Virus record (IMG/VR): IMGVR_UViG_3300049436_000052
Location: 270,327 to 334,326 of that record
DNA length: 64,000 bases
Origin: a virus
Reading direction: 5' to 3' (one strand)
Positions 15,815 through 63,071 of the stretch are shown here, piece after piece. The position numbers were made by a program, and so were the translations under genes. Below the pieces are notes generated by a model. That model saw nothing but the letters and a program-made list of their open reading frames with translations. It was not told the DNA's origin and made no database searches. How positions within the stretch are numbered: the stretch's first letter is position 1; the number at the start of each line of letters is the position of its first letter.

Positions 15815-17108
15815 GTGAACTACCCACCCACGCCAGAGGCGATGGATTGAGCTTCATAGGTCATAGACTCACCTAGTGGTAACGCCTCACTATGTTTTTG
15901 TTTTGTGTCCGACTGCATCCCACAAGCAGACAATATGTTTATTCCTTGCTTTAATATGTTATTAGCTGCATTTATATCTCTATCGTGAACTTCACCACAA
16001 GATTCGCAAGTCCATTCTCTTATCGAAAGTGTTAAATCTTGTTTTATCCATCCACAACTTGAACACTTTTTACTGCTTGGAAAGAATCTATCAATCTTAA
16101 CGAATTGTCTATCATTCCAATTGGCTTTATATTCAAGCATGGTGTAAAAAGCGCCCAATGAAACATCGCTCATTGCTTGTGCTAAACAATGATTTTTCAT
16201 TATATTCTTAACAGCTAAGTCCTCAACTGATATTATATCGTGGTTTTTGATGATTTCAGTTGATACTTTGTGTAAGTAATCTTTTCTAATGTTTGTGATT
16301 TGTTCGTGTACTAATGCAAGTTTTCTTTTTTGCTTATTTCTTGACTGACTTCCTTTTTGTTTTTTAGAAAGTTGTCTTTGCCCATATTTGATTTTCTTTA
16401 ATTTGGTTTTAAGTGATTTAATATTCCTATATACTTTACCATCTGAAAGTATAGCAAGTTCTTTTATTCCTGTGTCCACACCAACGGATTTGCCTGTTTT
16501 TTCAAACGGCTTATATTCTATTTCACAAGTAATTGAAACATAATATTTACCAGTTGTTGATTTTGATATTGTTGCAAACAATGGTTCGCCCCCCATTTGT
16601 CTGTGAAGGTTCAATTTGATTCCTTCTTTAAATTTAGGAATCACAAGTTTATCATCGTCAACAATTACATTTTGTGGTACTTTAAAACTTTGCCTATCAT
16701 ACTTTGATTTGAAACGTGGAAACTTATTTTGTTTATTGAAGAAATTCTTGTATGCAATATCTAAGTTTCTAATAGATGCTTGTAATGATTGACTATTCAC
16801 CTCTTTTAACCAAATATATTCATCATCTTTTTTCAGTTCAGTTAAAGTCCTTGCATTATCATAATAGTTAAGTGAAGTCTTTTCGTTTAAATACTTCTTT
16901 TTACGTTCATTCAAGAATCTATTAAACACAAATCTACAATGCCCAAAGTGTTTACTCAGCAAAGATTCTTGTTCCTTTGTTGGGTAAATTCTAAACTTAT
17001 ATGATTTATGTATCTGTGTCATTCTATTATTAGATAGTCTAAAGGTTAGCGTTTATCGCTTACATCCTATTCATGCTAAAGCGATGAATGGGTTTTACGC
17101 TCCGTTTT
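15815..17108 (-). mobile_element. Non-autonomous IS200/IS605-family element (tnpB only)
   Basis: Left-end hairpin ~17067-17093; TTTAT immediately outside the left end; right end ...GGGTAGTTCAC; no tnpA. Confidence 0.7.
15820..17022 (-). CDS. tnpB: RNA-guided endonuclease TnpB
   Basis: HKSYKFRIYPT N-terminus, RuvC GVDTG / VEDL / DRDINAA, CSSC..CESC zinc finger. Confidence 0.92.
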   Translation of the reverse strand: MTQIHKSYKFRIYPTKEQESLLSKHFGHCRFVFNRFLNERKKKYLNEKTSLNYYDNARTLTELKKDDEYIWLKEVNSQSLQASIRNLDIAYKNFFNKQNKFPRFKSKYDRQSFKVPQNVIVDDDKLVIPKFKEGIKLNLHRQMGGEPLFATISKSTTGKYYVSITCEIEYKPFEKTGKSVGVDTGIKELAILSDGKVYRNIKSLKTKLKKIKYGQRQLSKKQKGSQSRNKQKRKLALVHEQITNIRKDYLHKVSTEIIKNHDIISVEDLAVKNIMKNHCLAQAMSDVSLGAFYTMLEYKANWNDRQFVKIDRFFPSSKKCSSCGWIKQDLTLSIREWTCESCGEVHDRDINAANNILKQGINILSACGMQSDTKQKHSEALPLGESMTYEAQSIASGVGG

Positions 17109-17923: not shown

Positions 17924-19510
17924 TTAATTTTCAATTGGAAAGGTTTTTATTATTCGTTCACCATTTCTTTTTAAGATAATAATATTTTTTTCTATTTTTT
18001 TATAAATCCCAACAAAATCATTTCTATTTAATTTTGTTGAAAAATGGCAAGAACTTATATTTATCGAAGCAGCACATTCTTTAGGTGAATTAAATATAAT
18101 ATTATCTTTAAGAGATAATATTTTAATTTGTGTTGTTGTTTGTATTGTTTCATTATCATAGTTTTCAATTCTTTGTAAATATGATTCATATTTTCTTTCC
18201 AAAAAAACTGTAGCATTTGAATATATATGGTTTAAAAATTTAAGACCATCTTTATAAAAATAACGCATATATACGTTTTTTTCTTTATTAATAAACTTTT
18301 CAAATTTTGTTGCAAAAATATTATAATTTTTTAAGTATTTTAATATGTCATCAACACATTCCTTTGTTGAAATTATACTAACAACCCTTTTACCAATATG
18401 TCCATCACCATCCACCAACCCTCTTATTAAATGTTTAATTAAATCATTATTTATTTTTGGAAGATTTAGATTTTTTGTTTTATCACTACCAACGCCCAAT
18501 TTTAATAAATCATTTATTATTTTTTGTGAATAAATAATTAAATATGTTGAATGTATTTCACGACCATTTCTTTTATCGATATAAATACGATCATTAACTG
18601 GAGCAGTAGTTTTTATCAATTCTTTAAACTTTAAAAGAATATTCTTATCCTTAGTGTTTATAGTAAACGCTAATCTTGTTTTTTTTATCTTATCACTAGC
18701 AATAGATCCATCAGCACAAATAAAACCCAAATAATATGCTTTTTCTTCATTATCTATTATATTGAAAAAATTATCATTTTCTGTTATTTGTGGTTTTTGT
18801 TTTCGTTCAACATTATTTTCTTTAGCAAACTTTACTTTACTTTCTCTAATATTTAATGATATAACTGGTTTTGCAGGAAATTTATTATTATCAAGCCATT
18901 GTTCTGTAATTTCTTTATTAATTGGCCTCGATGTAATGTAACATTCTGGTTCAAATAATAAGTCATTTGATTTGATTAATGGTTTAATGTTTAAATAAAA
19001 ATCATCTAAACTGTTATTATTTTTCATTTCTTCAAATCTTTTTAACATTTGTCTATCACAATAATATGTTGAAGGATTTGATGGAATTTCAGAATATATT
19101 TCATGCCAAGCACCCATAAAATCTGCGATAACTCCATCAACATCTAACGATATTTTAGGTAAGTTTAAAATTTTCTTAACTCTATCATCACCTTGAGGAA
19201 AATCATGATAAAACGCATTTAAAAAATGTGCATTACATGCAAGATGTGCAATATGTAAATTTCCACTTTCTTTATCATAATCTTCACCCTTCTCAATTGC
19301 AATAAGATGTCTTTTAAGTGAAGCAATTAGAGAAGACCAACTCATACCTTTTTGCCAATTTCTAGGTTCGTATTTGTTTGCCCCGTCTGTCAAGACTTTA
19401 ACCATGTCTTCAAGCGCTTTTGAATGAATCAAATCGTGTCTCAATTTACCTTGATTATATCTCAATCCAGTTCCAACACCTGTCGTGAATTTAAATTCAT
19501 TTTCTTCCAT
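17924..19510 (-). CDS. dATP/dGTP diphosphohydrolase (DUF5664) + truncated HAD nucleotidase + LAGLIDADG endonuclease fusion
   Basis: RYNQGK, GANKY..RNW.KG, ESG..H.AH..CN; DVDGV and ITSR; AYYLGFICADG and LIRGLVDGDG. Confidence 0.75.
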   Translation of the reverse strand: MEENEFKFTTGVGTGLRYNQGKLRHDLIHSKALEDMVKVLTDGANKYEPRNWQKGMSWSSLIASLKRHLIAIEKGEDYDKESGNLHIAHLACNAHFLNAFYHDFPQGDDRVKKILNLPKISLDVDGVIADFMGAWHEIYSEIPSNPSTYYCDRQMLKRFEEMKNNNSLDDFYLNIKPLIKSNDLLFEPECYITSRPINKEITEQWLDNNKFPAKPVISLNIRESKVKFAKENNVERKQKPQITENDNFFNIIDNEEKAYYLGFICADGSIASDKIKKTRLAFTINTKDKNILLKFKELIKTTAPVNDRIYIDKRNGREIHSTYLIIYSQKIINDLLKLGVGSDKTKNLNLPKINNDLIKHLIRGLVDGDGHIGKRVVSIISTKECVDDILKYLKNYNIFATKFEKFINKEKNVYMRYFYKDGLKFLNHIYSNATVFLERKYESYLQRIENYDNETIQTTTQIKILSLKDNIIFNSPKECAASINISSCHFSTKLNRNDFVGIYKKIEKNIIILKRNGERIIKTFPIEN

Positions 19511-20689: not shown

Positions 20690-21751
20690 TTATTTATTAC
20701 GTATTTGTAAAATAATATCATTTACCATGTTTTCATCAACTTCATCAGGTAAGTCTGATTTGGAAAAAACTTCAATCATTTTATTATTTTTTTCCTCTAC
20801 TAATTTCATAATTTCATCATAACTTACCATGCCTTTACGAATCGATAACAACCATTCCCTATTTGGTCTTGCAACGTTTACACCCTTCCCCTCACCTATT
20901 TCAATAGCCATTTCCAACATTCGCAAACAATGCATTAAATTTTTACCGTCATAGTTTTGGCTATTATTTATATTATCATTATATCTATGAGGATTTCGTT
21001 TTTCGACCCACTCCCAATATTCTTTATATTTTTTACAATAACTGGAATATCCATCCTTATTGTAATATAAAAAAGCTTCAACATTGAAGTTTTTGGGAAT
21101 TTCACTATGTTTCAAATCATCACCATTTTTCGAAAGAATGCCTTTAAATCCGTGTATCTGTGATTCATCATAAAAAACTTTATATAGTTGAACACCATTA
21201 GGCATTTCAGACAATCCAATACGATCTTCTATTTTATTGTGTTTTCTCAACCACTGTTCAGCAAGCATCATGTAACCATTTTCCTTTTCAAAGATATAAC
21301 AAAAATCCAATATAGATTTTCTTTCTTTTGGCATTGGATTTACAATTTTCTTGTTTAATCCACGAGCTTTTTTTATTTGAGAAACCGAATATCCACCAAA
21401 TGTAAATTGTAGTTTTTTTGTTAAAAATTTCATTCGATTATCATATAGTGGTTTTATTCTTTCATCAAAATATAATATTTTATCTTCTGGAGTAAATAAA
21501 ATTTCAATAATATTTGGATTATTATCAACCAATAAACTTATAAATCTATTTAATTCATAATAAACTATGTCATTTTTTACATCGTTCAATTGTTCTTTAT
21601 AACCATTGGCTAATAGAAATTCATTTGGTTGTAAATAAATTCCACGAATATCAGTATCTGAAGTTGGTAGTTCTAACCCATATGCTTTACTACCAGTAAT
21701 TACTTTAAACAACAAATCTTTTTCAGCTATGTCAAAATTATAATTTACCAT
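20690..21751 (-). CDS. Pol-beta superfamily nucleotidyltransferase (RlaP-like)
   Basis: GSKAYGL..PTSDTDIRG, NPNIIE.L, YDGKNLMHCLR. Confidence 0.8.
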   Translation of the reverse strand: MVNYNFDIAEKDLLFKVITGSKAYGLELPTSDTDIRGIYLQPNEFLLANGYKEQLNDVKNDIVYYELNRFISLLVDNNPNIIEILFTPEDKILYFDERIKPLYDNRMKFLTKKLQFTFGGYSVSQIKKARGLNKKIVNPMPKERKSILDFCYIFEKENGYMMLAEQWLRKHNKIEDRIGLSEMPNGVQLYKVFYDESQIHGFKGILSKNGDDLKHSEIPKNFNVEAFLYYNKDGYSSYCKKYKEYWEWVEKRNPHRYNDNINNSQNYDGKNLMHCLRMLEMAIEIGEGKGVNVARPNREWLLSIRKGMVSYDEIMKLVEEKNNKMIEVFSKSDLPDEVDENMVNDIILQIRNK

Positions 21752-28452: not shown

Positions 28453-29637
28453 TTAATGTGATTTAAAGTTATACAAGGGTTTTAATGTGTCTATAATGTC
28501 AACTGTATCAACAATCATAGATTTTATTTCTTCAATAGATTTATATGCTTGAGGCGCTTCATCTAAGGTTTCTTTAACAACAGATGTACTATAAATTCCT
28601 TTCATCGAACCAATGAAATCATCCATTTTAATATTTTCTTTAGCCTTACTTCTACTAAATAATCTTCCAGCACCATGAGGAGCAGAATAATTCCAATCTT
28701 CATTACCCTTTCCAACACATAACAAAGAACCATCTCTCATATTAATTGGAATTAATAAAATTTCGTTTTTTTCGGCACTCACTGCACCTTTTCTTAAAAT
28801 CATTCGATTTAAATCAATATAATTGTGAATTGTTTCAAATTTTTCATCTATTATCCAACTCATTTCACTAATAATGATCTTGGCCATTGTTTCTCGATTA
28901 AGACTTGCAAATTTTTGAAGAACTGCCATATCATTCATATAATCATTGAAATCGTCTCCTGATAAATATGCAAGTTCTTTATCAGTAACAGGTTTTTTTA
29001 ACTTTTTCAATTCTTCATTAATTTCCCTTTCTCTACCATTTTTTCTTAATTCTTTAATGAGATTTTGCTTAACTTTTGACATTTCGTTAACATTTTGAAA
29101 TGCTTTGTCTTGATAATATTTACACATGTCGCCACCCAATTTTCTACTACCTGAGTGAATTATAAGATAAATATAATCGTAATTATCTGACTTTGAGACC
29201 TCTATGAAGTGATTGCCTCCACCGAGACTACCAATTGACAATATTGCTCTTTCTAAATCAACATGTTTTGCACATCTCAGGTTAGAAAAATCAAACTTAG
29301 CTTGTGAATTTTTATGAATGTTGAATCCATGAGGAACTTTTGTTTTGATAATGCGATCAAGTTTTTCGAAATTAATTTCCTGATTTTTTATTATAACTGT
29401 AAGCATTCCACAACTTACGTCTACCCCTACTAGGTTTGGAGTTATTTTATCTGTAATTGTCATAGTAGTTCCAACAGTACAACCCTTACCTAAATGAGAA
29501 TCTGGCATTATTCTAATTTTTGCATCTTGATATGCTTCAAAATTAGCCATTCTTTTCACTTGTTCATATGTTTCATAATCAAAAGTTTCAGCAAAAACCT
29601 TTGTTTCAACGCCTTTAACATTTTTTATTATCTGCAT
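28453..29637 (-). CDS. rtcB: RNA ligase RtcB
   Basis: MPDSHLGKG, VGVDVSCG, SLGGGNHFIE, HSGSR, HNY, RKGA, SAPHGAGR, DEAPQAYK. Confidence 0.95.
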   Translation of the reverse strand: MQIIKNVKGVETKVFAETFDYETYEQVKRMANFEAYQDAKIRIMPDSHLGKGCTVGTTMTITDKITPNLVGVDVSCGMLTVIIKNQEINFEKLDRIIKTKVPHGFNIHKNSQAKFDFSNLRCAKHVDLERAILSIGSLGGGNHFIEVSKSDNYDYIYLIIHSGSRKLGGDMCKYYQDKAFQNVNEMSKVKQNLIKELRKNGREREINEELKKLKKPVTDKELAYLSGDDFNDYMNDMAVLQKFASLNRETMAKIIISEMSWIIDEKFETIHNYIDLNRMILRKGAVSAEKNEILLIPINMRDGSLLCVGKGNEDWNYSAPHGAGRLFSRSKAKENIKMDDFIGSMKGIYSTSVVKETLDEAPQAYKSIEEIKSMIVDTVDIIDTLKPLYNFKSH

Positions 29638-32797: not shown

Positions 32798-33508
32798 TCA
32801 TTTTTTTCTATTTCTGGATGAATTTTTATTCCTTGCTCTAAAATTAATTGTCATTGAATGACAATTAGGACATAAAATTTCTAAATTATTTATATTACAA
32901 TTTTTAGCATCGCCATCAATATGATTAATTTCAGTTAAACTTTTTCCATCAATAGGATGTTTTTCATCCCACCCACATTTACTACATTTAGAACCTCTAA
33001 TCTCTTTTAAATATTTTCTAATAATAGTTTTTAATTGTATTGCCTTTCCATGCCATCCAACAGTTTCACCATTTAACCATCTTTCTATTGCATTTTTTTT
33101 AATACTAATATAAGTACATGTTTTAGAACAGTATATATTTTGTTTTTTTATTAGACGTTTTCCACAAATAAGACAAAATTCGTTTAATCTTTTTCTTTTA
33201 TTTTTTTTCACATAATTCACATTATTATATTTTGCAGAACAAGAATGTGAACAAAACAAATTAATCGACCCATTATGCTTAATATCATTTGCTTTTCGTT
33301 TAAACAATTTTCCACATGTTTTACAAGTACATTCACAAATTTTAACTGAAATGTCATTAATGTCTTTATATTTTAATCCAAGACTATATAATTTTAATTT
33401 AACAGATTTGCTTGTCCTATTTAAAATTTCGCCAATTTCGTTATATTTTTTATGTTTGTTAAATAATTCTATCAATAAATTCAATTCATCTTTATCCCAT
33501 TTTTTCAT
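32798..33508 (-). CDS. HNH homing endonuclease inserted in a tRNA cluster
   Basis: CSKCG, EINHIDGD..N....NLEILCPNCH; zinc-binding CxxC / FCS..C repeats. Confidence 0.85.
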   Translation of the reverse strand: MKKWDKDELNLLIELFNKHKKYNEIGEILNRTSKSVKLKLYSLGLKYKDINDISVKICECTCKTCGKLFKRKANDIKHNGSINLFCSHSCSAKYNNVNYVKKNKRKRLNEFCLICGKRLIKKQNIYCSKTCTYISIKKNAIERWLNGETVGWHGKAIQLKTIIRKYLKEIRGSKCSKCGWDEKHPIDGKSLTEINHIDGDAKNCNINNLEILCPNCHSMTINFRARNKNSSRNRKK

Positions 33509-33842: not shown

Positions 33843-33860
33843 CAATACGTCAAAGAACAT
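33843..33860 (-). promoter_or_regulatory. boxA-like antitermination element ATGTTCTTTGACGTATTG
   Basis: Resembles rrn boxA; second copy at 58793-58810. Confidence 0.5.
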
Positions 33861-33865
33861 AAAAC

Positions 33866-33898
33866 AAAAAAACCCGATTCATTTCTGGATCGGGTTGT
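33866..33898 (-). terminator. Attenuator terminator upstream of the 8-tRNA cluster
   Basis: AACCCGATCC-AGAAAT-GAATCGGGTT then TTTTT. Confidence 0.85.
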
Positions 33899-33929
33899 AG
33901 GAATAATGATTATCTATTCTTCTTTTTGC

Positions 33930-34058
33930 TTATATCATTATATATAACAACCCAATACCTATGTCAATACTATTTCTACGGAAGAAACATGACATAAAAT
34001 TTCCATTGCGATTTATTCTCGATATGGACGTTTGAGTTATTGTTATAATAGATTTCAT
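33930..34058 (-). CDS. Leader peptide MKSIITITQTSISRINRNGNFMSCFFRRNSIDIGIGLLYIMI (attenuator of the Cys/Ile/Phe/Asn/Met/Arg/Ser tRNA cluster)
   Basis: Hand translation; 20 of residues 11-31 match the cluster's amino acids; ATTGGGTTGT pairs with the terminator 5' arm. Confidence 0.85.
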   Translation of the reverse strand: MKSIITITQTSISRINRNGNFMSCFFRRNSIDIGIGLLYIMI

Positions 34059-44083: not shown

Positions 44084-47000
44084 TTAGAAATGTATCTCAC
44101 ACGAATTTCCGTTACATGCGATAGCACCAGTTGAATCAATATCAGTATATTTAGGTTTAACGTTTAACTGTTTCCAATCAATATCTTTTATATCTCTATT
44201 AATCTCAATAAATTTATGGTAGTTGTTTACATCTTTCAAACAGTATGTCATTTCTTTTATTGAATTAAAATATCTATCAGAAAATTGTTTTGCTCTTCTA
44301 AGCCAATCTTTTTTCAACGGATAATTATGTAATGTAGAAATCAATTTACTATCTAAATATCTTTTATATTCCTCTAACTCTGGTTTAATGTTTAATTCAC
44401 TTAATTGTTTTAATGTTCCATTTTTAAATCCCAAATTTTTCCATAAAATTTCAGGTGTAGTATTTTTTATTTTTTCGTTAACTTCAATATCTGAATATTC
44501 CAATTTTTCGCCTAATCCTAAAACAGTATCACAAGCCATCCACAAGTTATTATTAAAAGCATTCAATCCATCAACGATCAAACCTGATGCAAATAAAACT
44601 GCATCCCCATATTTTCTCACAAGTTCTTCAGGTGAAGGTATTGCAGTAAAAGGTGCTTGGTTATAATCTTTATCTCCAGTCATTGGTAATAAACTAATTC
44701 CAGCAAATGTTTGTTTATTATCATAAATATAATTTTCCACAGCATCCCAATCATCTACAATAATAGTATTACTTACATTATGACGTATACTAGGATCAGT
44801 ACATAATTCAACATTTGTCCCATATTCAACCCAATTTTCTTGTGTTGTTTTAACATATTTTAGCAATTTAATCCCCATTAATTCATCTTTTAATATACTA
44901 TTTTTGGGGGTTGTTATTGGAAATGATATAACCCAATCGTTATTATTTGCAGACCAAACCGATTTTTCGACCATTTTAGGGTTAACTTCCACAAAATATT
45001 TGGCAATATCGTCTTCAACATTCACCTGAACATTTCTTATATATTGTTCAGAATGTTCACCATGTATCCCTGACGCACTTTTTAATAAAACGGAAGAATT
45101 TCCCGATGGTTTCACACATGTTGTACGAGCAGCTTGATTAATTCCAATCATTTGGGCAACTTCTTTATTTATTTCTTTAACAATTATTGCACCTTTTCTT
45201 TGAATTTCAGGATTTAGTAATATTTGTGGATTATTCATAAAACCAGTTATAGAAACCCCTAACAATGCTTCTCTGTCAAATATTTGTTTAGTAATTTCGT
45301 CAACATACTTAAAGTCAGTGTATGCTGCTTGCATTGTTCCCATAATTGCCCCAGCCTTACACGCCCCATAAAATTCTTCTTCTGTATTACATTTACTCCC
45401 ATTAATTTCACACAAGTTACATCCAATAGATCCTGATCTTCCATCTTCTGTTTTGGGTGAAAATCCAATCTCGAAACAATTTGAAACATTACAACCTTGA
45501 GTCCAATAAGTATGTGATTTATTATCAACAGTAATATCATATACTTCCTCTTCAGAAATAAAAGATTTGTTTATAATTTGTTTTGAAATATTTTCAGAAT
45601 TTAATTTACACCATTTTTTTAGATGAATTTCTAATTTTTCATTTTTATAGTTTTGTAAAAATCCGATATATTCATAAAACAAATCAACATCTTTAGATAT
45701 ATTTAAATCATAACTTTCTTTACAAATATATTCACCATTTGAAAATTTTGTTTTAGTTGATTTATTTGTTGTATAATAAGATGCAATTCCTATTGAATTT
45801 AACATTAATTGAACATCTTCTATTAAATTAAATGATGTTGATTTTAATGTTACACGTCTTCCAACAAAACTACCATTAGCACTATATAACCCTCTTAAAA
45901 ATGAACATATTATAGATATATCACCCTTTAAGAATCTTTCAGGTATTTTTCTTTCAAATGTTTTATTTAGTTCATCATACTTAATTGAAGTAATTATTTC
46001 ATATTGATATTCACCAACACCGTCTCTTTTTTTCAAGATAAGATTTTTTATTTCACTATCAAAATAATCAAAATCGTTTTTACCTATACATAATAATACT
46101 AAATTATTTGATGCTTTATGAACAGTTCCATCACCAATTACTAGTCCATCCATAATAATATTATTATCAAATATTGGTTTATTTACCATAATACCTCTTA
46201 ATAATTCTATATTTTCGGCTAAATCTATTTCAATTTTTTCATTATTATTTACTATTCTATGATTTTCTGTACCATAAAATGAATTAAATGTTGTTCCATA
46301 TCTATAAACCTTTTTTATTCCCGTTGACCATTTATTTGTTATTTTCGTCCAACCTTCTGAACTCCATATTTCATCACCAATATTAATATCTTTTAATTCT
46401 TTAATACCTTTTGGTGTTAATAATTTGGCCCATGCAGGTTGACAAGGGTTAAAAATATTATCCTCATTTTCCGTAAATCCAAAACCAGGTTCTCCATATT
46501 CTTTAGTTGATTGGAAAAATTTATGAAACTCTTCTTTTGTTAAATTATTTTTATTTAATAAGACACTATTATTAGATCTTGCTCGTTGTGGATTTTCAAT
46601 AAACCAATTTCCTGTTTTAGCTTTCATCATTTTCTCGTCATTGGGACTAAATAGACATACAGAAGCCGAACGCCTTAATCCTCCAGAGATAACAGCATCA
46701 CTCATATGCATGACAATATCATAAGCTAATATTGGTTCAACAACCCCATTAAAATTAGCTTTATCTAGTTCTTTTTCTAAAAGATCTTCTATTTTTTGAA
46801 TTGCATTTCGTAGTCCATCAGAACCTGGAGCTTTAAAGCCACCACTAATCATACTTCCTTTAGGCCTTATTTCACTATAATCAAAATGAATACAACAATT
46901 TTGAAATTTTGGAAAAGTAACATCACCATCAAAATAAGAAGATAGAAGTATTCCAATCGCATCTGCCCAGCCTTCAATACTATCCTCTATAATATGGGTT

Positions 47001-47446
47001 TTTGAACGATTTGATCTTTGTTTAATTTTGGGAAGTTTTTCAATATGTTTGTTTTGAACTGAAAATCCAACACCACAACCACATAAAAGCCAATACATAC
47101 AATCTTGAAAAAATCTTACTCTATCACAATACATTCCAATACAATTATAAATTTTAGCATTGTGTTTAAGTATTGGAGCACCACCGAATTGTAAACCTCT
47201 TTGTGAACCTAATACATATTTTTCTTTGTATTTTTTTCTTGCAAATTCATAATATTCTTTAAATTGTGGATTATTTTCCAATATTTCTTTAAATTTAATT
47301 TGGTGCATTTGATCAAAAACTCTATCAACACTTTCTTCCCAAGTTTCGTATCGTCCCAATTCTTCATTGTATTTACTATAACTTGAATAAAATTTAAAAT
47401 TTGATAACAGATCATGACCTAAGTCATTGAATTTCATTTTCTTCAT
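44084..47446 (-). CDS. nrdJ: Ribonucleotide reductase catalytic subunit (NrdJ/class II-like) with intein
   Basis: GCGVGFS, GGLRRSA, GEPG, NP|CFEI, CNLCE, TTCVKPSG, C-terminal CNGNSC; class assignment tentative. Confidence 0.8.
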   Translation of the reverse strand: MKKMKFNDLGHDLLSNFKFYSSYSKYNEELGRYETWEESVDRVFDQMHQIKFKEILENNPQFKEYYEFARKKYKEKYVLGSQRGLQFGGAPILKHNAKIYNCIGMYCDRVRFFQDCMYWLLCGCGVGFSVQNKHIEKLPKIKQRSNRSKTHIIEDSIEGWADAIGILLSSYFDGDVTFPKFQNCCIHFDYSEIRPKGSMISGGFKAPGSDGLRNAIQKIEDLLEKELDKANFNGVVEPILAYDIVMHMSDAVISGGLRRSASVCLFSPNDEKMMKAKTGNWFIENPQRARSNNSVLLNKNNLTKEEFHKFFQSTKEYGEPGFGFTENEDNIFNPCQPAWAKLLTPKGIKELKDINIGDEIWSSEGWTKITNKWSTGIKKVYRYGTTFNSFYGTENHRIVNNNEKIEIDLAENIELLRGIMVNKPIFDNNIIMDGLVIGDGTVHKASNNLVLLCIGKNDFDYFDSEIKNLILKKRDGVGEYQYEIITSIKYDELNKTFERKIPERFLKGDISIICSFLRGLYSANGSFVGRRVTLKSTSFNLIEDVQLMLNSIGIASYYTTNKSTKTKFSNGEYICKESYDLNISKDVDLFYEYIGFLQNYKNEKLEIHLKKWCKLNSENISKQIINKSFISEEEVYDITVDNKSHTYWTQGCNVSNCFEIGFSPKTEDGRSGSIGCNLCEINGSKCNTEEEFYGACKAGAIMGTMQAAYTDFKYVDEITKQIFDREALLGVSITGFMNNPQILLNPEIQRKGAIIVKEINKEVAQMIGINQAARTTCVKPSGNSSVLLKSASGIHGEHSEQYIRNVQVNVEDDIAKYFVEVNPKMVEKSVWSANNNDWVISFPITTPKNSILKDELMGIKLLKYVKTTQENWVEYGTNVELCTDPSIRHNVSNTIIVDDWDAVENYIYDNKQTFAGISLLPMTGDKDYNQAPFTAIPSPEELVRKYGDAVLFASGLIVDGLNAFNNNLWMACDTVLGLGEKLEYSDIEVNEKIKNTTPEILWKNLGFKNGTLKQLSELNIKPELEEYKRYLDSKLISTLHNYPLKKDWLRRAKQFSDRYFNSIKEMTYCLKDVNNYHKFIEINRDIKDIDWKQLNVKPKYTDIDSTGAIACNGNSCEIHF
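45479..46444 (-). mobile_element. Intein (322 aa) with LAGLIDADG endonuclease, inserted before the RNR catalytic Cys
   Basis: NP|CQPAWAKLLTP...GLVIGDG...FLRGLYSANG...VYDITV...VSN|CFEI. Confidence 0.88.
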
Positions 47447-48137: not shown

Positions 48138-48171
48138 AAAAAAACCCGAAACTTATTCAGAATCGGGTTTT
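48138..48171 (-). terminator. Attenuator terminator upstream of tRNA-Lys/Tyr
   Basis: AAAACCCGA...TCGGGTTTTTTT. Confidence 0.8.
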
Positions 48172-48198
48172 AACTTAATAACCTAAAATTTAAAATTT

Positions 48199-48282
48199 TT
48201 AGCACATAACTTTCCCAATTCTTACTAAGATTTGTTTCTTATAAGATTTTGAGTAATAATATGTGCTGCTTGTCAAAAACAT
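48199..48282 (-). CDS. Leader peptide MFLTSSTYYYSKSYKKQILVRIGKVMC (attenuator of the Lys/Tyr tRNA cluster)
   Basis: Hand translation; YYYSKSYKK run; AGAATTGGG pairs with terminator arm CCCGATTCT; TATCTTTG at 48313-48320. Confidence 0.87.
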   Translation of the reverse strand: MFLTSSTYYYSKSYKKQILVRIGKVMC

Positions 48283-48670: not shown

Positions 48671-49750
48671 TTAAAAGCCTATTTTCTTTTTTCCATTATC
48701 AAACGACATTTCACTTGTATTATAGATATCTGCTAATGTGAATGAATCAACAACTTCAACTTTTAGTTTTTCTGCTAATTTTCTTGCACGATCATTTGAT
48801 AATTTTTTAAACTCATATTGAGCAATTAATCTACCTTTTCTCAATAATGCCTTATCAATATTAAGTATTGATGTGTTAAATGTTGCGACAATTTGAATAT
48901 TTAAACAATCTGATAATAATCCATCTGTTAAATTTAGTAGATTTGAAATTGCTTGTGATGAATATCCGCTTCTTTTCATTAGAATATTTTCAGCATCTTC
49001 AATAACCAGAATTGAATTTGAAACATCAACAAGAAATTTAATTAAGTGTGGTGATGAAATGGAATCTGTCATATTTGGTGGAAGATAGATAACATTTTTA
49101 TTTAATTTATTAATTAAATGTCTAATATATGTTGTTTTCCCTGTCCCTGGTTCACCATATAGTAAAACCAAACCTTTTGAGTTATCTTTTGAAAGTTTGT
49201 TTACGATTAATTCATTCACTTCTTCAAAATCTTCATTATAATTTAACGAAAAGTCGATTGTTGGTGGTTGAATTTCTTTTTGAAGTAAACTAAATCCATT
49301 CAAACTTGATACTAACAGGTTTATATATTTATTATTATTTTGATCTATTTTATAATTGTTTATTTCATTGACTAAGTTTTCTAGGGATTTGGTTTTAATT
49401 GAAAAATAAAGTTTGATCGCAATTCTACCATCGCAATAATCCTCAACAGCTTTTACATAAACTACATTATTAGGTTCATTAAAACAAAAAAGAATTATAT
49501 GATAGTATTTGTCAACAATTTCCTTTTTATCATAGTAATATTCTGATGTTGTTACAATATTATCTTTATATTTTTCAATAAATGCATTAATTATTTCTCT
49601 ATCAAACATATATTCGAACCCAATACAATTTGGAATTTTCTTAAATTTATCCCAAATCAAATTTTTTATTGGATAGTTACTATCATCATCAACAGATCCA
49701 AAATAATTATGTGTTAATTCATTTCTTTTTTTACTGGTCGATTCTTCCAT
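48671..49750 (-). CDS. AAA+ ATPase
   Basis: GEPGTGKT, LVIEDAE, LLNLTDG, IDKALLRKGR. Confidence 0.88.
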   Translation of the reverse strand: MEESTSKKRNELTHNYFGSVDDDSNYPIKNLIWDKFKKIPNCIGFEYMFDREIINAFIEKYKDNIVTTSEYYYDKKEIVDKYYHIILFCFNEPNNVVYVKAVEDYCDGRIAIKLYFSIKTKSLENLVNEINNYKIDQNNNKYINLLVSSLNGFSLLQKEIQPPTIDFSLNYNEDFEEVNELIVNKLSKDNSKGLVLLYGEPGTGKTTYIRHLINKLNKNVIYLPPNMTDSISSPHLIKFLVDVSNSILVIEDAENILMKRSGYSSQAISNLLNLTDGLLSDCLNIQIVATFNTSILNIDKALLRKGRLIAQYEFKKLSNDRARKLAEKLKVEVVDSFTLADIYNTSEMSFDNGKKKIGF

Positions 49751-58783: not shown

Positions 58784-58817
58784 TTATTTTAAAAATATTT
58801 CAAAGAACATTAAATTG

Positions 58818-58902: not shown

Positions 58903-58934
58903 AAAAAACCCCAACAAATTCATGTCGGGGTTTT
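58903..58934 (-). terminator. Attenuator terminator upstream of tRNA-Leu/Asp/Glu
   Basis: AAAACCCCGACA-TGAATT-TGTTGGGGTTTTTT. Confidence 0.85.
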
Positions 58935-58961
58935 AGATAAAATTATACAATAATTATATAT

Positions 58962-59054
58962 TTATTTCCCGACAAAACATAACAATTCCTCATCAGCAGC
59001 CCATAGAAGAGTATCTGCTAAAGATAAAGTCAATATGTCGAGTAAATTTTTCAT
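58962..59054 (-). CDS. Leader peptide MKNLLDILTLSLADTLLWAADEELLCFVGK (attenuator of the Leu/Asp/Glu tRNA cluster)
   Basis: Hand translation; 9 Leu, 3 Asp and 2 Glu of 30 residues; TGTCGGG pairs with terminator arm CCCGACA. Confidence 0.82.
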   Translation of the reverse strand: MKNLLDILTLSLADTLLWAADEELLCFVGK

Positions 59055-59248: not shown

Positions 59249-59707
59249 TTAACTAATATAAACAAAACCATCATTACCAACGTAAATGTTTTTTTCTTTC
59301 ATGTTCCTAGCAATATTTTGTAGAGTATCATTCCAATCATCAAAAAATCCTACACCATGTCCATTTCTTGACAACCATAAATTATGTCCTAATGCATTTG
59401 CATCATAACTATTTAATTCATCTGGTGCTTGTTCTTTTGCTGTTTTGATAAAATCGATAATATCTTGTCGAGCAATTTCTTTTGATTTTTCATCAACATC
59501 AAAAATTGTTTTTTCTTTTAAACCGTTTTCGTCACTTTCTTCTGCCCATAAAGCAGTTTCTAAGTAACTAGGTAAAACTTCATTAACATCTAAATTATTT
59601 TCTAAATTAACGTTCTCATTTAACATTTTTTTGGGTTTATAGGTGTTATCAATTTTTGACATTAATTCAAATAATTGTTTTTTGTTTCTTGTATCTTTAT
59701 TTTTCAT
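59249..59707 (-). CDS. Conserved phage hypothetical protein
   Basis: YLETALW and GHNLWLSRNGHGVGFFD motifs. Confidence 0.55.
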   Translation of the reverse strand: MKNKDTRNKKQLFELMSKIDNTYKPKKMLNENVNLENNLDVNEVLPSYLETALWAEESDENGLKEKTIFDVDEKSKEIARQDIIDFIKTAKEQAPDELNSYDANALGHNLWLSRNGHGVGFFDDWNDTLQNIARNMKEKNIYVGNDGFVYIS

Positions 59708-59971
59708 AGTTTATAATAATTTTTTTAATAATAAGATTTTCAATGTTTTGCCATTGTTCTTAAACGATAATTCAACTTTAGAATTTTCACGAAATTTTAT
59801 ATATGATCTTCCCAATTCATCAATAACTTCAACAGTATTTACATCATTAAGGAAGATTGTATCGTTTTTCATCTCAACCAATTCTTCGTTCGATTTTTTT
59901 AAATTCATTTAAAAAACATTTTATATAAATACTATAAAAAGTTATTAATTAAACGTATTATTTAAAAATAG

Positions 59972-60054
59972 TTGCTCTGGCAGAATTCAAATCTGCACGC
60001 CTTACGGCACAAAAGTCAAAGTTTTGCGAGTCTAATCAATTCCTCCACAGAGCA
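59972..60054 (-). tRNA. tRNA-Gln(UUG) with a Leu-like long variable arm
   Basis: TGCTCTG/CAGAGCA, CAAAA-CTTTGAC-TTTTG, variable TGCCGTAAGGCGT. Confidence 0.78.
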
Positions 60055-60065
60055 ATATAGTATTT

Positions 60066-60142
60066 TGGGGGTTAGGTGGAGTATGATTCCACATCTTTCA
60101 AGGTCACAGCTTGATGCTCTATCCATTTAAGCTACTAATCCC
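60066..60142 (-). tRNA. tRNA-His(GUG)
   Basis: G-1:C73, TCAAG-CTGTGAC-CTTGA. Confidence 0.88.
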
Positions 60143-60174
60143 ATATAAATAATCTTAAATTATTTGATTATCAG

Positions 60175-60246
60175 TCGAGCGTGCCGAAATCGAATCGTTC
60201 CTGAATGTTCCAGACATCCCATGCTAACCATCACACCCCACACTCG
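60175..60246 (-). tRNA. tRNA-Pro(UGG), 8-bp acceptor stem
   Basis: CGAGTGTG/CACGCTCG, GGATG-TCTGGAA-CATTC. Confidence 0.78.
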
Positions 60247-60261
60247 AAAAATTTATAAAAT

Positions 60262-60298
60262 AAAAAACCCCATTCAATTTTTATCTTGAATGGGGTTT
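60262..60298 (-). terminator. Attenuator terminator upstream of tRNA-Pro/His/Gln
   Basis: AAACCCCATTCAA-GATAAAAA-TTGAATGGGGTTTTTT. Confidence 0.88.
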
Positions 60299-60321
60299 GT
60301 GATAAAACCTAAAATCATTTT

Positions 60322-60405
60322 TTAAACATAGATTTCCCATTCAACATTTTGTGGATGTTGTGGTTGGGGATGCTGAACGCACAATATGTTTAAAACATTT
60401 TTCAT
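60322..60405 (-). CDS. Leader peptide MKNVLNILCVQHPQPQHPQNVEWEIYV (attenuator of the Pro/His/Gln tRNA cluster)
   Basis: Hand translation; 9 consecutive Q/H/P codons; TTGAATGGG pairs with terminator arm CCCATTCAA; TAAATTTG at 60423-60430. Confidence 0.9.
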   Translation of the reverse strand: MKNVLNILCVQHPQPQHPQNVEWEIYV

Positions 60406-60661
60406 TTTCCTTAATTAAAATACAAATTTACTCGTTTAAATTCAATTAACCAAATTTATTTAGTTAAAATATATTAAAAATAAACATAACCGCTATTTTC
60501 GGCAAAGAAATCATTTATCATATTTACTACTTTATCAAACATAACTTGAAGAATTTATTTCAAGCAATGACAATAATTCCTTATTTTTACATAAATACTC
60601 AAAAATTTAAAAAAATATTTTAATAGATTATCATAGTATTTATAATAAAAAAATATTTCAC

Positions 60662-61201
60662 ATGAAACTTGATAACAATATATTAAATATTATCAACGAA
60701 GAAATATCGCAAAGTTTTAATTTTTTAAGCAATGATGATATTTTAAAAGAACAGGAAGAGAATCAATTGTTAAATAATGAAGATTTTCAAAAACAATTTA
60801 TTTGCGATTCTTTATTAAATACAAGCAATAAGATAAAATTTATTGAATTTGGTGATGGAAATATTGGAGGGAATTGGGAAGAAGACCCTGAAAATGCTAC
60901 TAATTTATCTATTGATCAATACATTAAATTAGAATTTAAATACGATTCTGAAAAAGATCCTATTGTTCTGGAATTAAATTTTGATGGTGATATTTCAATA
61001 ATTAAAAGCGATTCTTCAGAACAAGGTGATTATAATAGACCATCATATAGTGAAGCATGGTTTAATGGTTTTGATTGGAATGATGTTAATGTTTCTTTAT
61101 ATGATTCTAATGGTAATAAAATTGAATTTGTTGCATTAAAAAAAGCTCCAAATAATATTAGAATATTGTTTGTAAAAATAATATTAGAATATTGTTTATA
61201 A
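60662..61201 (+). CDS. Hypothetical acidic protein with IINEEI motif
   Basis: AGTATTTATA at 60635-60644 upstream. Confidence 0.55.
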   Translation: MKLDNNILNIINEEISQSFNFLSNDDILKEQEENQLLNNEDFQKQFICDSLLNTSNKIKFIEFGDGNIGGNWEEDPENATNLSIDQYIKLEFKYDSEKDPIVLELNFDGDISIIKSDSSEQGDYNRPSYSEAWFNGFDWNDVNVSLYDSNGNKIEFVALKKAPNNIRILFVKIILEYCL

Positions 61202-61260: not shown

Positions 61261-62496
61261 TTAAATTAAACTTAATTTTATTGGCTGTAACACACAACCT
61301 CTACAAACTAAATTATTGAAATAATTTTCATTTGCTACATTTATTTTTCTTAACATCCCCAAAGAACCATTTATATCTGCGTTTAGTGTAATTCCTGTTG
61401 ATGATCTAAATAAACCTCTTTTAATTCTTCTTCCTAAATATTTTTTAGAATATTTCATTTCTTCATTTGATAGGTGATCAGATTTTGAAGTATAACTTTC
61501 TTCAGTTAATAAAACTTCTATTCCTACTTCTTCTGCCTTATATTTAATCATGTTAATTAAATTATCAAATGGAATGTTAACAAAATTCTGATTATTTTTC
61601 TTATTTAAATTACATTCTTGTTTCCAATTATCATTTTTACCAATAACAATTTTTCCAACATCATGTTTAATACATAATTCTATTAACCATTTACTTGCTT
61701 TATGTAGATAATCATCTATTTTATTTTTTCTTTTTAATGTAATTCTATTTAATTTTTTTGAAAAGTTTTTGTTATTAACAATTTTAATAACCGATTTTTC
61801 TTTGGAAATTAATTTATTATAATATTGATTTATAGTTTTTAATGGTCTACCGTTAACCAAATATGATAATGGTTTTTCTTGGTTTGATGTTATAGCCAAT
61901 AAATTATTCACACCCAAATCAATCCCTATTACATTATTTTTATTTAATTTTAATTCTTTAATGTCTTTTTCATATACAATTTCTATTTTAATCTTATTAT
62001 TTTTTGGTACTAATCTAATTTCTTTTAGTTTGTTTTTTGTTATTTTTGAATTAATGCTGTAATCTGATTTTGGTATTTTAATTTTGTTTTCTTTATTGTA
62101 AGATAAATTTTGTTTAGGAAAAATACAAACAAAATATCCTTTCTTATCCAAGTATTTTGGAAGACTTGGTTTACCTAAATATTTATTTGGATTTTTTACA
62201 TAATCTTTTATAGATCTAAAGAAACTTAACCAATTTCTATCTAATAATTTTAATACTTGTTGAGATGTCTGTGCTGGTAAATCTTTATAGGTTTCATGGG
62301 ATTTAACTAAATTATATAATTCATGATATCTAATCCAATTAGCGTATTCAACTAAGCCTTGTTCTTTTTCTTTAGAAGATTTAATAAATTCTTGTCTAAT
62401 TATATAATTAGAATAATTATAAAGATTTTTTGCTTTATGACAAAAATCAAAAAGTATTTTATCAGATTTAATATGTGATTCTATTCTGGTTGGCAT
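61261..62496 (-). CDS. tnpB: TnpB of an IS607-family element
   Basis: KNLYN, GIDLG..N, DYLHKAS, ESYTSK, NADING. Confidence 0.88.
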   Translation of the reverse strand: MPTRIESHIKSDKILFDFCHKAKNLYNYSNYIIRQEFIKSSKEKEQGLVEYANWIRYHELYNLVKSHETYKDLPAQTSQQVLKLLDRNWLSFFRSIKDYVKNPNKYLGKPSLPKYLDKKGYFVCIFPKQNLSYNKENKIKIPKSDYSINSKITKNKLKEIRLVPKNNKIKIEIVYEKDIKELKLNKNNVIGIDLGVNNLLAITSNQEKPLSYLVNGRPLKTINQYYNKLISKEKSVIKIVNNKNFSKKLNRITLKRKNKIDDYLHKASKWLIELCIKHDVGKIVIGKNDNWKQECNLNKKNNQNFVNIPFDNLINMIKYKAEEVGIEVLLTEESYTSKSDHLSNEEMKYSKKYLGRRIKRGLFRSSTGITLNADINGSLGMLRKINVANENYFNNLVCRGCVLQPIKLSLI

Positions 62497-63071
62497 AATT
62501 CTTCAACAAGGTTTTTTCTTTTATTTGAATATAATTTCATTGAATATGAATGTAATAAAGTAACGATTTCTTCAAAAATTTCTTCTGAATCTAATTTAGG
62601 ATTTCCTATTTCACTAATAACTTCAATATTTGTTCCATATTTTTCGAATAATACTTTAAACAATTCAAATCCAATCCTAGATAATCTATCTTTATATGTT
62701 ATGATAATTCTTTCAATTTTTCCATCAATAACATCATTAATTAAATTAAAAAGTTCTTTTCTATTTTCAAAATTAATACCTGAAGCAATATCATATTTGA
62801 TTTCATTAATAGAATAACCTTTATTAAAACACCATTGTTTTAATAAATTAATTTGATTTTCAAGATCTTTTTTTTGTTTTATTATGGATACTCTTGCATA
62901 TATTATAGTTTTTCTATTCATTTCTTTATTTAAGAAATCATAAATAGATTTATCATCATAAGAATATCTACCATTAGGTAGTGTAGTTGTTTTTACATAT
63001 CCCAATTTAACATATTTGGTTAGTGTTGGTCTACTTATTTTCAATAAATTCAGGACATCATTTGCCTTCAT
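62481..63071 (-). CDS. tnpA: IS607-family serine recombinase transposase
   Basis: N-terminal HTH, IYARVS, DIASG, KDRLSR; overlaps tnpB. Confidence 0.9.
   Translation of the reverse strand: MKANDVLNLLKISRPTLTKYVKLGYVKTTTLPNGRYSYDDKSIYDFLNKEMNRKTIIYARVSIIKQKKDLENQINLLKQWCFNKGYSINEIKYDIASGINFENRKELFNLINDVIDGKIERIIITYKDRLSRIGFELFKVLFEKYGTNIEVISEIGNPKLDSEEIFEEIVTLLHSYSMKLYSNKRKNLVEELCQPE

Follow-up and report, generated by a model that had tools for sequence, protein, structure and literature searches.

This study concerns a short minus-strand unit in the genome of a giant uncultured phage, deposited in IMG/VR (record IMGVR_UViG_3300049436_000052), in which a leader open reading frame (ORF) with consecutive Gln, His, and Pro codons is followed by a terminator hairpin and by tRNA genes for the same three amino acids. 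The sequence under study, hereafter called the window, is the final 64 kb (64,000 nucleotides) of the 334,326-bp record. The phage genome has a G+C content of 25% and a completeness of 100% according to CheckV. All of its confident tRNA genes except one lie inside the window, where they are arranged on the minus strand in four blocks. The Pro/His/Gln unit (U1) consists of the following features.

60454-60423, minus strand: promoter-like site of the Bacteroidota type, a consensus match composed of TTTG (60454-60451), a 20-nt spacer, and TAAATTTG (60430-60423)
60405-60322, minus strand: leader ORF with the ATG at 60405, 27 codons plus TAA (60324-60322), encoding MKNVLNILCVQHPQPQHPQNVEWEIYV
60375-60349, minus strand: regulatory run, codons 11-19, CAG CAT CCC CAA CCA CAA CAT CCA CAA, encoding QHPQPQHPQ
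60368-60355, minus strand: region 1, CCCC...CAACAU within the run; its predicted partner in untranslated RNA is region 2 with the flanking bases (minimum free energy (MFE) structure, both full-length and nascent naked RNA)
60344-60336, minus strand: region 2, the antiterminator strand UUGAAUGGG, codons 21-24, a copy of the terminator 3′ arm
60335-60305, minus strand: inner hairpin b, AAAUCUA (60335-60329) with UAGGUUU (60311-60305), spanning the stop codon and nested in the antiterminator
60298-60262, minus strand: intrinsic terminator with the 5′ arm CCCCAUUCAA (60295-60286), an 8-nt loop, the 3′ arm UUGAAUGGGG (60277-60268), and a U-tract (60267-60262)
60246-60174, minus strand: candidate tRNA-Pro(UGG), found only by ARAGORN with -ps90
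60141-60067, minus strand: tRNA-His(GUG), called by ARAGORN and, at 49.8 bits, in a local Rfam search
60054-59971, minus strand: tRNA-Gln(UUG), called by ARAGORN and, at 44.5 bits, in a local Rfam search

The original prediction, made from the letters of this DNA alone, had placed the leader with its nine consecutive codons at 60405-60322, and both the coordinates and the sequence proved exact. It had also called the C-rich run striking for this genome. QHPQPQHPQ exceeds every other run of Pro, His, and Gln in the six frames of the 334,326-bp genome, the next longest being 7. These three amino acids account for 7.5% of the residues in long phage ORFs and for 9/26 in the leader (binomial 7e-5), where all nine are consecutive. 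Of the nine codons in the run, seven are those that the phage prefers for Pro, His, and Gln (CCA 63%, CAT 83%, and CAA 90%). Upstream, the TAAATTTG box is separated from the leader ATG (60405) by 17 nt. The promoter pattern scanned was TTTG-N18-22-TAnnTTTG; I take TTTG-N-TAnnTTTG to be a Bacteroidota promoter type. Two other tRNA blocks (U2 and U3, see below) have a match to the pattern in the corresponding place ahead of their leaders.

Only tRNA genes, and no genes for biosynthetic enzymes, lie downstream of the terminator. Exactly tRNA-Pro(UGG), tRNA-His(GUG), and tRNA-Gln(UUG) had been expected there. The His and Gln genes were recovered by both programs, while the Pro gene appeared only at the relaxed ARAGORN threshold; it was not called by ARAGORN with default settings, nor by Rfam even at E<=10. 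Its D and T stems are weak, and position 33 is C in place of U. Its acceptor stem is common to the Pro(UGG) genes at the same position in related phages, and C33 recurs in one Pro(UGG) gene of a relative (G002). The tRNA-Gln, at 84 nt, has a long variable arm, an unusual trait in a tRNA for Gln. The T-run after the terminator stem (60267-60262) and the start of the tRNA-Pro are 21 nt apart, and this gap leaves no space for a promoter. The nearest upstream ORF (60662-61201) is divergent on the plus strand, and no plus-strand gene reads into the hairpin. Since there is no minus-strand gene upstream and the upstream ORF is divergent, the terminator serves no other gene.

Folding of the nascent leader RNA

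The terminator hairpin has a calculated energy of -15.6 kcal/mol. A separate terminator scan called it at 60298-60265 with 13 pairs and a U-tract, and found 4 sites in the region against 0.8 expected. The nine nucleotides of region 2, UUGAAUGGG, are identical to the first 9 nt of the 3′ arm UUGAAUGGGG and complement CCCAUUCAA in the 5′ arm (60295-60286). The duplex of region 2 (60344-60336) with the 5′ arm (60294-60286) was calculated at -13.2 kcal/mol, a value that was matched in 0/1000 dinucleotide shuffles of the leader. Thus, the earlier claim that this segment duplicates the terminator 3′ arm was borne out, and the claimed competition for the 5′ arm is supported.

To model the nascent RNA, the RNA present before the 3′ arm is made was folded, with an assumed ribosome footprint of -15 to +14 nt masked. 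Three states were obtained. In the naked nascent RNA, region 2 is held by the run (CCCC...CAACAU with AUGUUG...GGG), which leaves the 5′ arm unpaired and the terminator possible. When the ribosomal A-site is at run codons 11-17, the MFE structure is the antiterminator, a helix of region 2 and the 5′ arm stacked on inner hairpin b. When the A-site is at codon 19 or at the stop codon, the antiterminator is absent. In this model, the three states follow classical attenuator logic. Ten relatives of the unit were folded as well. In them, the antiterminator forms when the ribosome stalls anywhere on the run except at its last one or two codons, and with a ribosome at the stop codon it is absent in seven and only partial in three. 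The naked-RNA state is more variable, the antiterminator forming in 4/11 family members.

Relatives and the other three tRNA blocks

Is the unit found elsewhere, and do the codons of the leader follow the tRNAs? IMG/VR was scanned with the RNA elements alone (GAATGGG, a gap, CCCCATTC, a loop, and GARTGGGGTTTTT), a pattern that avoids selection on codons. The scan returned 44 loci. In 43 of them, a leader with a run of Pro, Gln, and His codons lies in the frame GAA TGG G, and 31 distinct peptides are represented. The sole match outside the family (L047) is an ordinary gene end without a run or tRNAs and serves as a negative control. Where at least 1300 nt are available downstream, Pro and Gln tRNAs were found in 34/34 loci, with Pro first in 33/34. 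With the standard threshold, a His tRNA was detected in 29 of these 34, and relaxing the threshold added 4. One locus (L068) had been taken to have lost the His codon together with the matching tRNA, but this case was dropped since the relaxed tRNA scan finds its His tRNA. In L036 alone, an Arg codon (CGC) stands ahead of the run, and in L036 alone a tRNA-Arg(ACG) heads the block. A scan based on the codon pattern gave a terminator and Pro/His(/Gln) tRNAs in 11/11 matches.

The phage sequence aligns over its full length with 35 other members of this leader family, MKN..(P/Q/H run)..EWG. It shares with them a homologous leader, region 2 as GAAUGGG, the terminator arm CCCCAUUC, and the Pro/His/Gln tRNAs downstream. 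GAAUGGG does not vary among the 36 members, 33 of which were retrieved with a pattern demanding it. For region 2 with the 5′ arm, 97.6% of the cells in the 36-member alignment pair, and the helix is invariant. For inner hairpin b, 87.7% of the cells pair, and its covariation score is 0.141 against 0.118 in shuffled alignments, with 2/500 shuffles reaching the score. This suggests a modest covariation of the inner hairpin. Across 11 distinct relatives, the frame of the leader, the MKN start, and the position of the stop codon are kept; all indels are multiples of three, and the changes in Pro and Gln codons (CCN and CAR) are synonymous. A second small ORF starting from the AUG inside GAAUGGG (MGNLCL...) also recurs in relatives. 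It was rejected as a by-product, its length and sequence being variable and its start being forced by the RNA motif.

The other three tRNA blocks of the phage are each headed by a similar arrangement. It comprises a short ORF that contains a copy of the terminator 3′ arm, the terminator itself, and either a promoter match or a TAnnTTTG box.

58905-59054, minus strand: U2, leader MKNLLDILTLSLADTLLWAADEELLCFVGK, tRNAs for Leu, Asp, and Glu
48145-48282, minus strand: U3, leader MFLTSSTYYYSKSYKKQILVRIGKVMC, tRNAs for Lys and Tyr
33873-34058, minus strand: U4, leader MKSIITITQTSISRINRNGNFMSCFFRRNSIDIGIGLLYIMI, tRNAs for Cys, Ile, Phe, Asn, Met, Arg (two), and Ser

Each of the four leaders is enriched solely in the amino acids of its own block, and the true assignment ranks first among the 24 permutations. 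The terminator arm that pairs best with each leader is also its own. The tRNA-Tyr (48046-47964) and the tRNA-Phe (33648-33574) were picked up only with Rfam (31 bits) or with ARAGORN at a relaxed setting.

A scan for the leader start MKNxLxIL, which is blind to tRNAs and terminators, led to five viral contigs with a U2-type leader before a tRNA-Asp. The order of the blocks is the same in the relatives, namely [Pro His Gln], [Asp Glu Val Leu Ala Trp], [Lys Tyr], and [Thr Cys Asn Ile Ser Phe Gly Arg], and a leader and a terminator head each of them. The true pairing of leaders and blocks is top-ranked in G001 (1/24), G002 (1/6), and G003 (1/24). Their Pro/His/Gln leaders are of the MKN..PQPQQHPQ..EWG type.

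Pro/His/Gln leader of a relative: MKNLINIVPQPQQHPQSLEWGNYA
Pro/His/Gln leader of a relative: MKNFTHTQPQPQQHPQEVEWGKYV
Pro/His/Gln leader of a relative: MKNLMNINPQQHPQTLEWGFYA

Val, Ala, and Trp are abundant in the leaders of those U2 relatives whose blocks include tRNAs for these amino acids. The U2 block of the phage under study has lost these three tRNAs; its leader has one Val, against six in the relatives, and has retained the Ala and Trp codons. The pairing arms of the U2 family change together. The leader segment UAGUCGGG occurs with the 5′ arm CCCGACUA and CAGUCGGG occurs with CCCGACUG, the 3′ arm matching in each case.

Some further observations were made around these units. The promoter match of U2 lies at 59234-59203, and an extra hairpin with a U-run (around 59160-59125) lies between it and the U2 leader. 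A 16-codon ORF, MKKLKLLFMKMVGTTV (59105-59055, minus strand), is also located upstream of the U2 leader, its stop codon ending 1 nt before the leader ATG (TAA C ATG). The motif GTTCTTTGA occurs on the minus strand just past the U4 terminator (33850-33858) and between the tRNA-Leu and tRNA-Asp genes (58800-58808). It is found within 70 nt after the Pro/His/Gln terminator in 11/41 relatives (L028-L071) and is absent from the Pro/His/Gln unit of the phage under study. The motif resembles boxA of rRNA operons.

Other searches were less productive. When IMG/VR was scanned for the peptide QHPQPQHPQ irrespective of codon choice, five GC-rich coding regions turned up; they are unrelated, lack tRNAs, and were discarded. 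No relatives were found via the neighboring proteins (a 152-aa ORF at 59249-59707 and an AAA ATPase at 48671-49750). Among GenBank phages, no relative of the unit was found, the matches being TnpB or generic tRNA similarity. A scan of bacterial and archaeal genomes gave two contigs of metagenome-assembled genomes (MAGs), neither of which yields a clue to the host. One of the two, deposited as a Candidatus Paceibacterota MAG (L073, JBAZIW010000001.1), carries the same Pro/His/Gln unit. It is probably a phage genome mis-binned as a bacterium, and is taken here, without sequence comparison, as G003/L032.

Proposed mechanism and alternative explanations

The unit is likely to be a ribosome-mediated leader-peptide transcription attenuator that senses decoding speed and controls a phage tRNA operon. 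A translatable leader, clustered cognate codons, an intrinsic terminator, and an antiterminator sharing a strand with the terminator, as expected of this class, are all present, and the ribosome-position geometry was reproduced in silico. To the observed elements, their complementarity, their conservation, and the match of codons to tRNAs, this reading adds leader translation, coupling of the ribosome with RNA polymerase, and a response of termination to tRNA supply, all of which I infer. The original prediction of an attenuator thus finds support at the level of sequence, with all testable features present, a family in 43 other viral contigs, and the leader-block match in four genomes.

The attenuator might work as follows. 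Transcription would start about 10-12 nt ahead of the leader ATG, and a ribosome would translate the leader behind the moving RNA polymerase. If the Gln, His, and Pro codons are decoded fast, the ribosome would reach the stop codon with region 2 covered or just unwound. With region 2 unavailable, the terminator (60298-60262) would form and the transcript would end before the tRNA genes. If charged tRNA-Gln, tRNA-His, or tRNA-Pro is scarce, slow decoding would leave the ribosome parked on the run, where it occupies region 1. The free region 2 would then pair with the terminator 5′ arm, aided by inner hairpin b, and block the terminator. The polymerase would read through into the tRNA-Pro, tRNA-His, and tRNA-Gln genes, and the new tRNAs would relieve the stall, closing a negative-feedback loop. 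Thus, the phage probably makes these tRNAs only if ribosomes read Gln, His, and Pro codons slowly.

Several points weigh against this reading. The promoter-like site does no more than fit a consensus, and with 11 matches in the window where 6.8 would be expected, the pattern shows no enrichment there. The tRNA-Pro(UGG) is sub-threshold and may be impaired. At one locus (L044), the leader has a His codon and no His tRNA was detected. No compensatory change is seen in the U1 family, whose antiterminator and terminator arms do not vary, and for most members this invariance was imposed by the search patterns. The full-length transcript at equilibrium always folds into the terminator, whether or not a ribosome site is masked. 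The switch must therefore be kinetic, as in classical attenuators, which decide kinetically, and it is for this reason that modeling of the nascent RNA was needed. The geometry obtained in that model depends on the assumed footprint of -15 to +14 nt, and a ribosome stalled on the last two run codons would mask region 2. The protective 1:2 pairing of the naked RNA, predicted for this phage, is predicted for only about half of the relatives.

The alternative that survives best, although improbable, is that the same hardware responds to general translation capacity (ribosome availability, global slowdown, or infection stage), the codon run being incidental to specificity. In the folding model, any slowing of the leading ribosome before region 2 gives read-through, and non-cognate codons are also present in the leaders. 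However, such a signal leaves unexplained why the four paralogous leaders in four genomes are enriched in the amino acids of their own blocks, and why the additional Arg codon is found only where a tRNA-Arg joins the block.

It is very unlikely that the C/A-rich run is an RNA element, either a complement of region 2 or an unstructured translation enhancer, with its Pro/His/Gln reading as a by-product and the hairpin as a constitutive terminator or processing signal. A C/A-rich strand encodes CCN and CAN codons anyway, but the conserved frame, the indels in threes, and the synonymous changes are not accounted for by an RNA element. The run does pair with region 2 in the naked-RNA fold, yet this 1:2 pairing is not kept across relatives. 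Moreover, the runs of the other units differ in base composition (Tyr/Lys; Leu/Asp/Glu; and Ile/Asn/Arg/Ser/Phe) and yet match their own tRNAs.

There is equally little to be said for a functional small protein encoded by the short ORF, with the hairpin ending its transcript and the tRNAs being expressed separately. The N-terminal MKN.L.I and the C-terminal EWG.Y are conserved as peptide. However, EWG falls on an RNA motif, GAAUGGGG, whose pairing partner is the terminator arm, and among 11 distinct leaders the two codons that separate the run from EWG are freely variable. In L039, a frameshift truncates the peptide, while the run and the RNA elements are retained. The 21-nt gap between the T-run and the tRNA-Pro is also too short for a separate promoter. 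Finally, a T-box-like or other riboswitch binding tRNA directly, without involvement of translation, shares the output logic of a terminator and antiterminator before genes of the translation apparatus but is hardly credible, as a single RNA would need to read three tRNAs, no T-box (RF00230) or other Rfam cis-regulator reached the threshold in the window, no T-box was found at E<=10 in 59900-60500, and the best local matches are sub-threshold (rli38, 36 against 49 bits; PyrG leader, 24 against 65 bits) and aligned mainly or largely over the terminator hairpin.

Neighboring genes, known systems, and significance

Two genes for RNA repair lie near the tRNA blocks, an RtcB RNA ligase (28453-29637, minus strand, Pfam E 1e-60) and an RlaP-family RNA-repair nucleotidyltransferase (20690-21751, minus strand, E 1e-17). 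Their presence suggests that the phage may also repair damaged tRNA. Candidate mobile elements lie in the window as well. Beside the Pro/His/Gln unit, a 411-aa ORF overlaps a 196-aa ORF (61261-63071, minus strand). The 411-aa ORF gave the only matches to GenBank phages, annotated as a transposase in Bacillus phage G, and the pair was read by eye as a candidate IS607-like TnpB with a serine recombinase. Another ORF (15820-17022, minus strand) matches Pfam OrfB_IS605 and a Cas12f1-like TNB domain. A dATP/dGTP diphosphohydrolase N-terminal domain (17924-19510) and a ribonucleotide reductase alpha chain (44084-47446), both on the minus strand, each have a LAGLIDADG domain, and these are probably inteins. 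The diphosphohydrolase domain is one that I associate with purine-modifying phages. Inside the eight-tRNA block, between the tRNA-Phe and tRNA-Asn genes, a Cys-rich ORF (32800-33506, minus strand) has an HNH-like CPNCH motif recognized by eye, and looks like a homing-endonuclease insertion.

How does the unit compare with known systems? The hisL and trpL leaders are leader-peptide attenuators of enterobacterial amino-acid operons, and hisL has seven consecutive His codons. Like them, the phage unit has a short leader ORF with regulatory codons, 1:2, 2:3, and 3:4 pairings, and an intrinsic terminator, and the position of the ribosome would decide between the structures. Unlike them, it regulates the tRNAs reading the regulatory codons and not biosynthetic enzymes, and it places three amino acids in one run. 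It also belongs to a giant phage, has a promoter match of the Bacteroidota type, and has no sequence homology to them. Since the classical amino-acid operons (hisL, trpL, leuL, pheL, thrL, and ilvL) are defined by the regulation of biosynthetic enzymes, the phage unit falls outside that group.

Multivalent attenuators are known, as thrL senses Thr and Ile and the ilvGMEDA leader senses Ile, Leu, and Val. The phage leaders resemble these in that several amino acids would be sensed by one leader of mixed codons, but the output of the phage unit is tRNA genes, and its codon set tracks the tRNA set of the block, including the gain of Arg in L036. The pheM leader of Escherichia coli controls pheST, the phenylalanyl-tRNA synthetase operon. 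It is likewise a leader-peptide attenuator over a translation component that serves the sensed codons; it differs in being bacterial and monovalent and in controlling a synthetase instead of tRNA genes. T-box riboswitches also sense tRNA status with a terminator/antiterminator switch before translation-related genes, but they bind uncharged tRNA directly and need no ORF.

In mycobacteria, polycysteine leaderless short ORFs have been described as Cys-responsive attenuators (bioRxiv 10.1101/834739). They too are reported to be short ORFs in which a run of one codon type senses for downstream expression, and they differ in the host and in the regulated genes, with no control of tRNA genes. In literature searches covering any organism, no description of leader-peptide attenuation of tRNA genes was found. 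The proposed mechanism is of a known kind; what sets it apart is the regulated product, as a phage would here control the very tRNAs by which the regulatory codons are read.

The common view of tRNA genes in phages is that they are constitutive helpers for codon usage or spares against host defenses that cleave tRNAs. To my knowledge, their regulation has been little described. A more speculative possibility, which I hold only tentatively, is that the four attenuators are codon-resolved sensors of depleted host tRNAs (for example, by anticodon nucleases or by the phage shut-off of the host), each inducing only the matching block. They might then work beside the RtcB and RlaP-like repair as an inducible counter-defense, and not as plain supply homeostasis.

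The Pro/His/Gln unit is compact (about 200 nt) and its family is widespread, occurring in 43 further viral contigs. Such an attenuator could serve as a codon-specific sensor of translation stress. If the proposed mechanism is true, the supply of a tRNA would be coupled to the decoding speed of the codons that this tRNA reads, and the leaders would be a built-in annotation of the tRNAs that a block carries or once carried.

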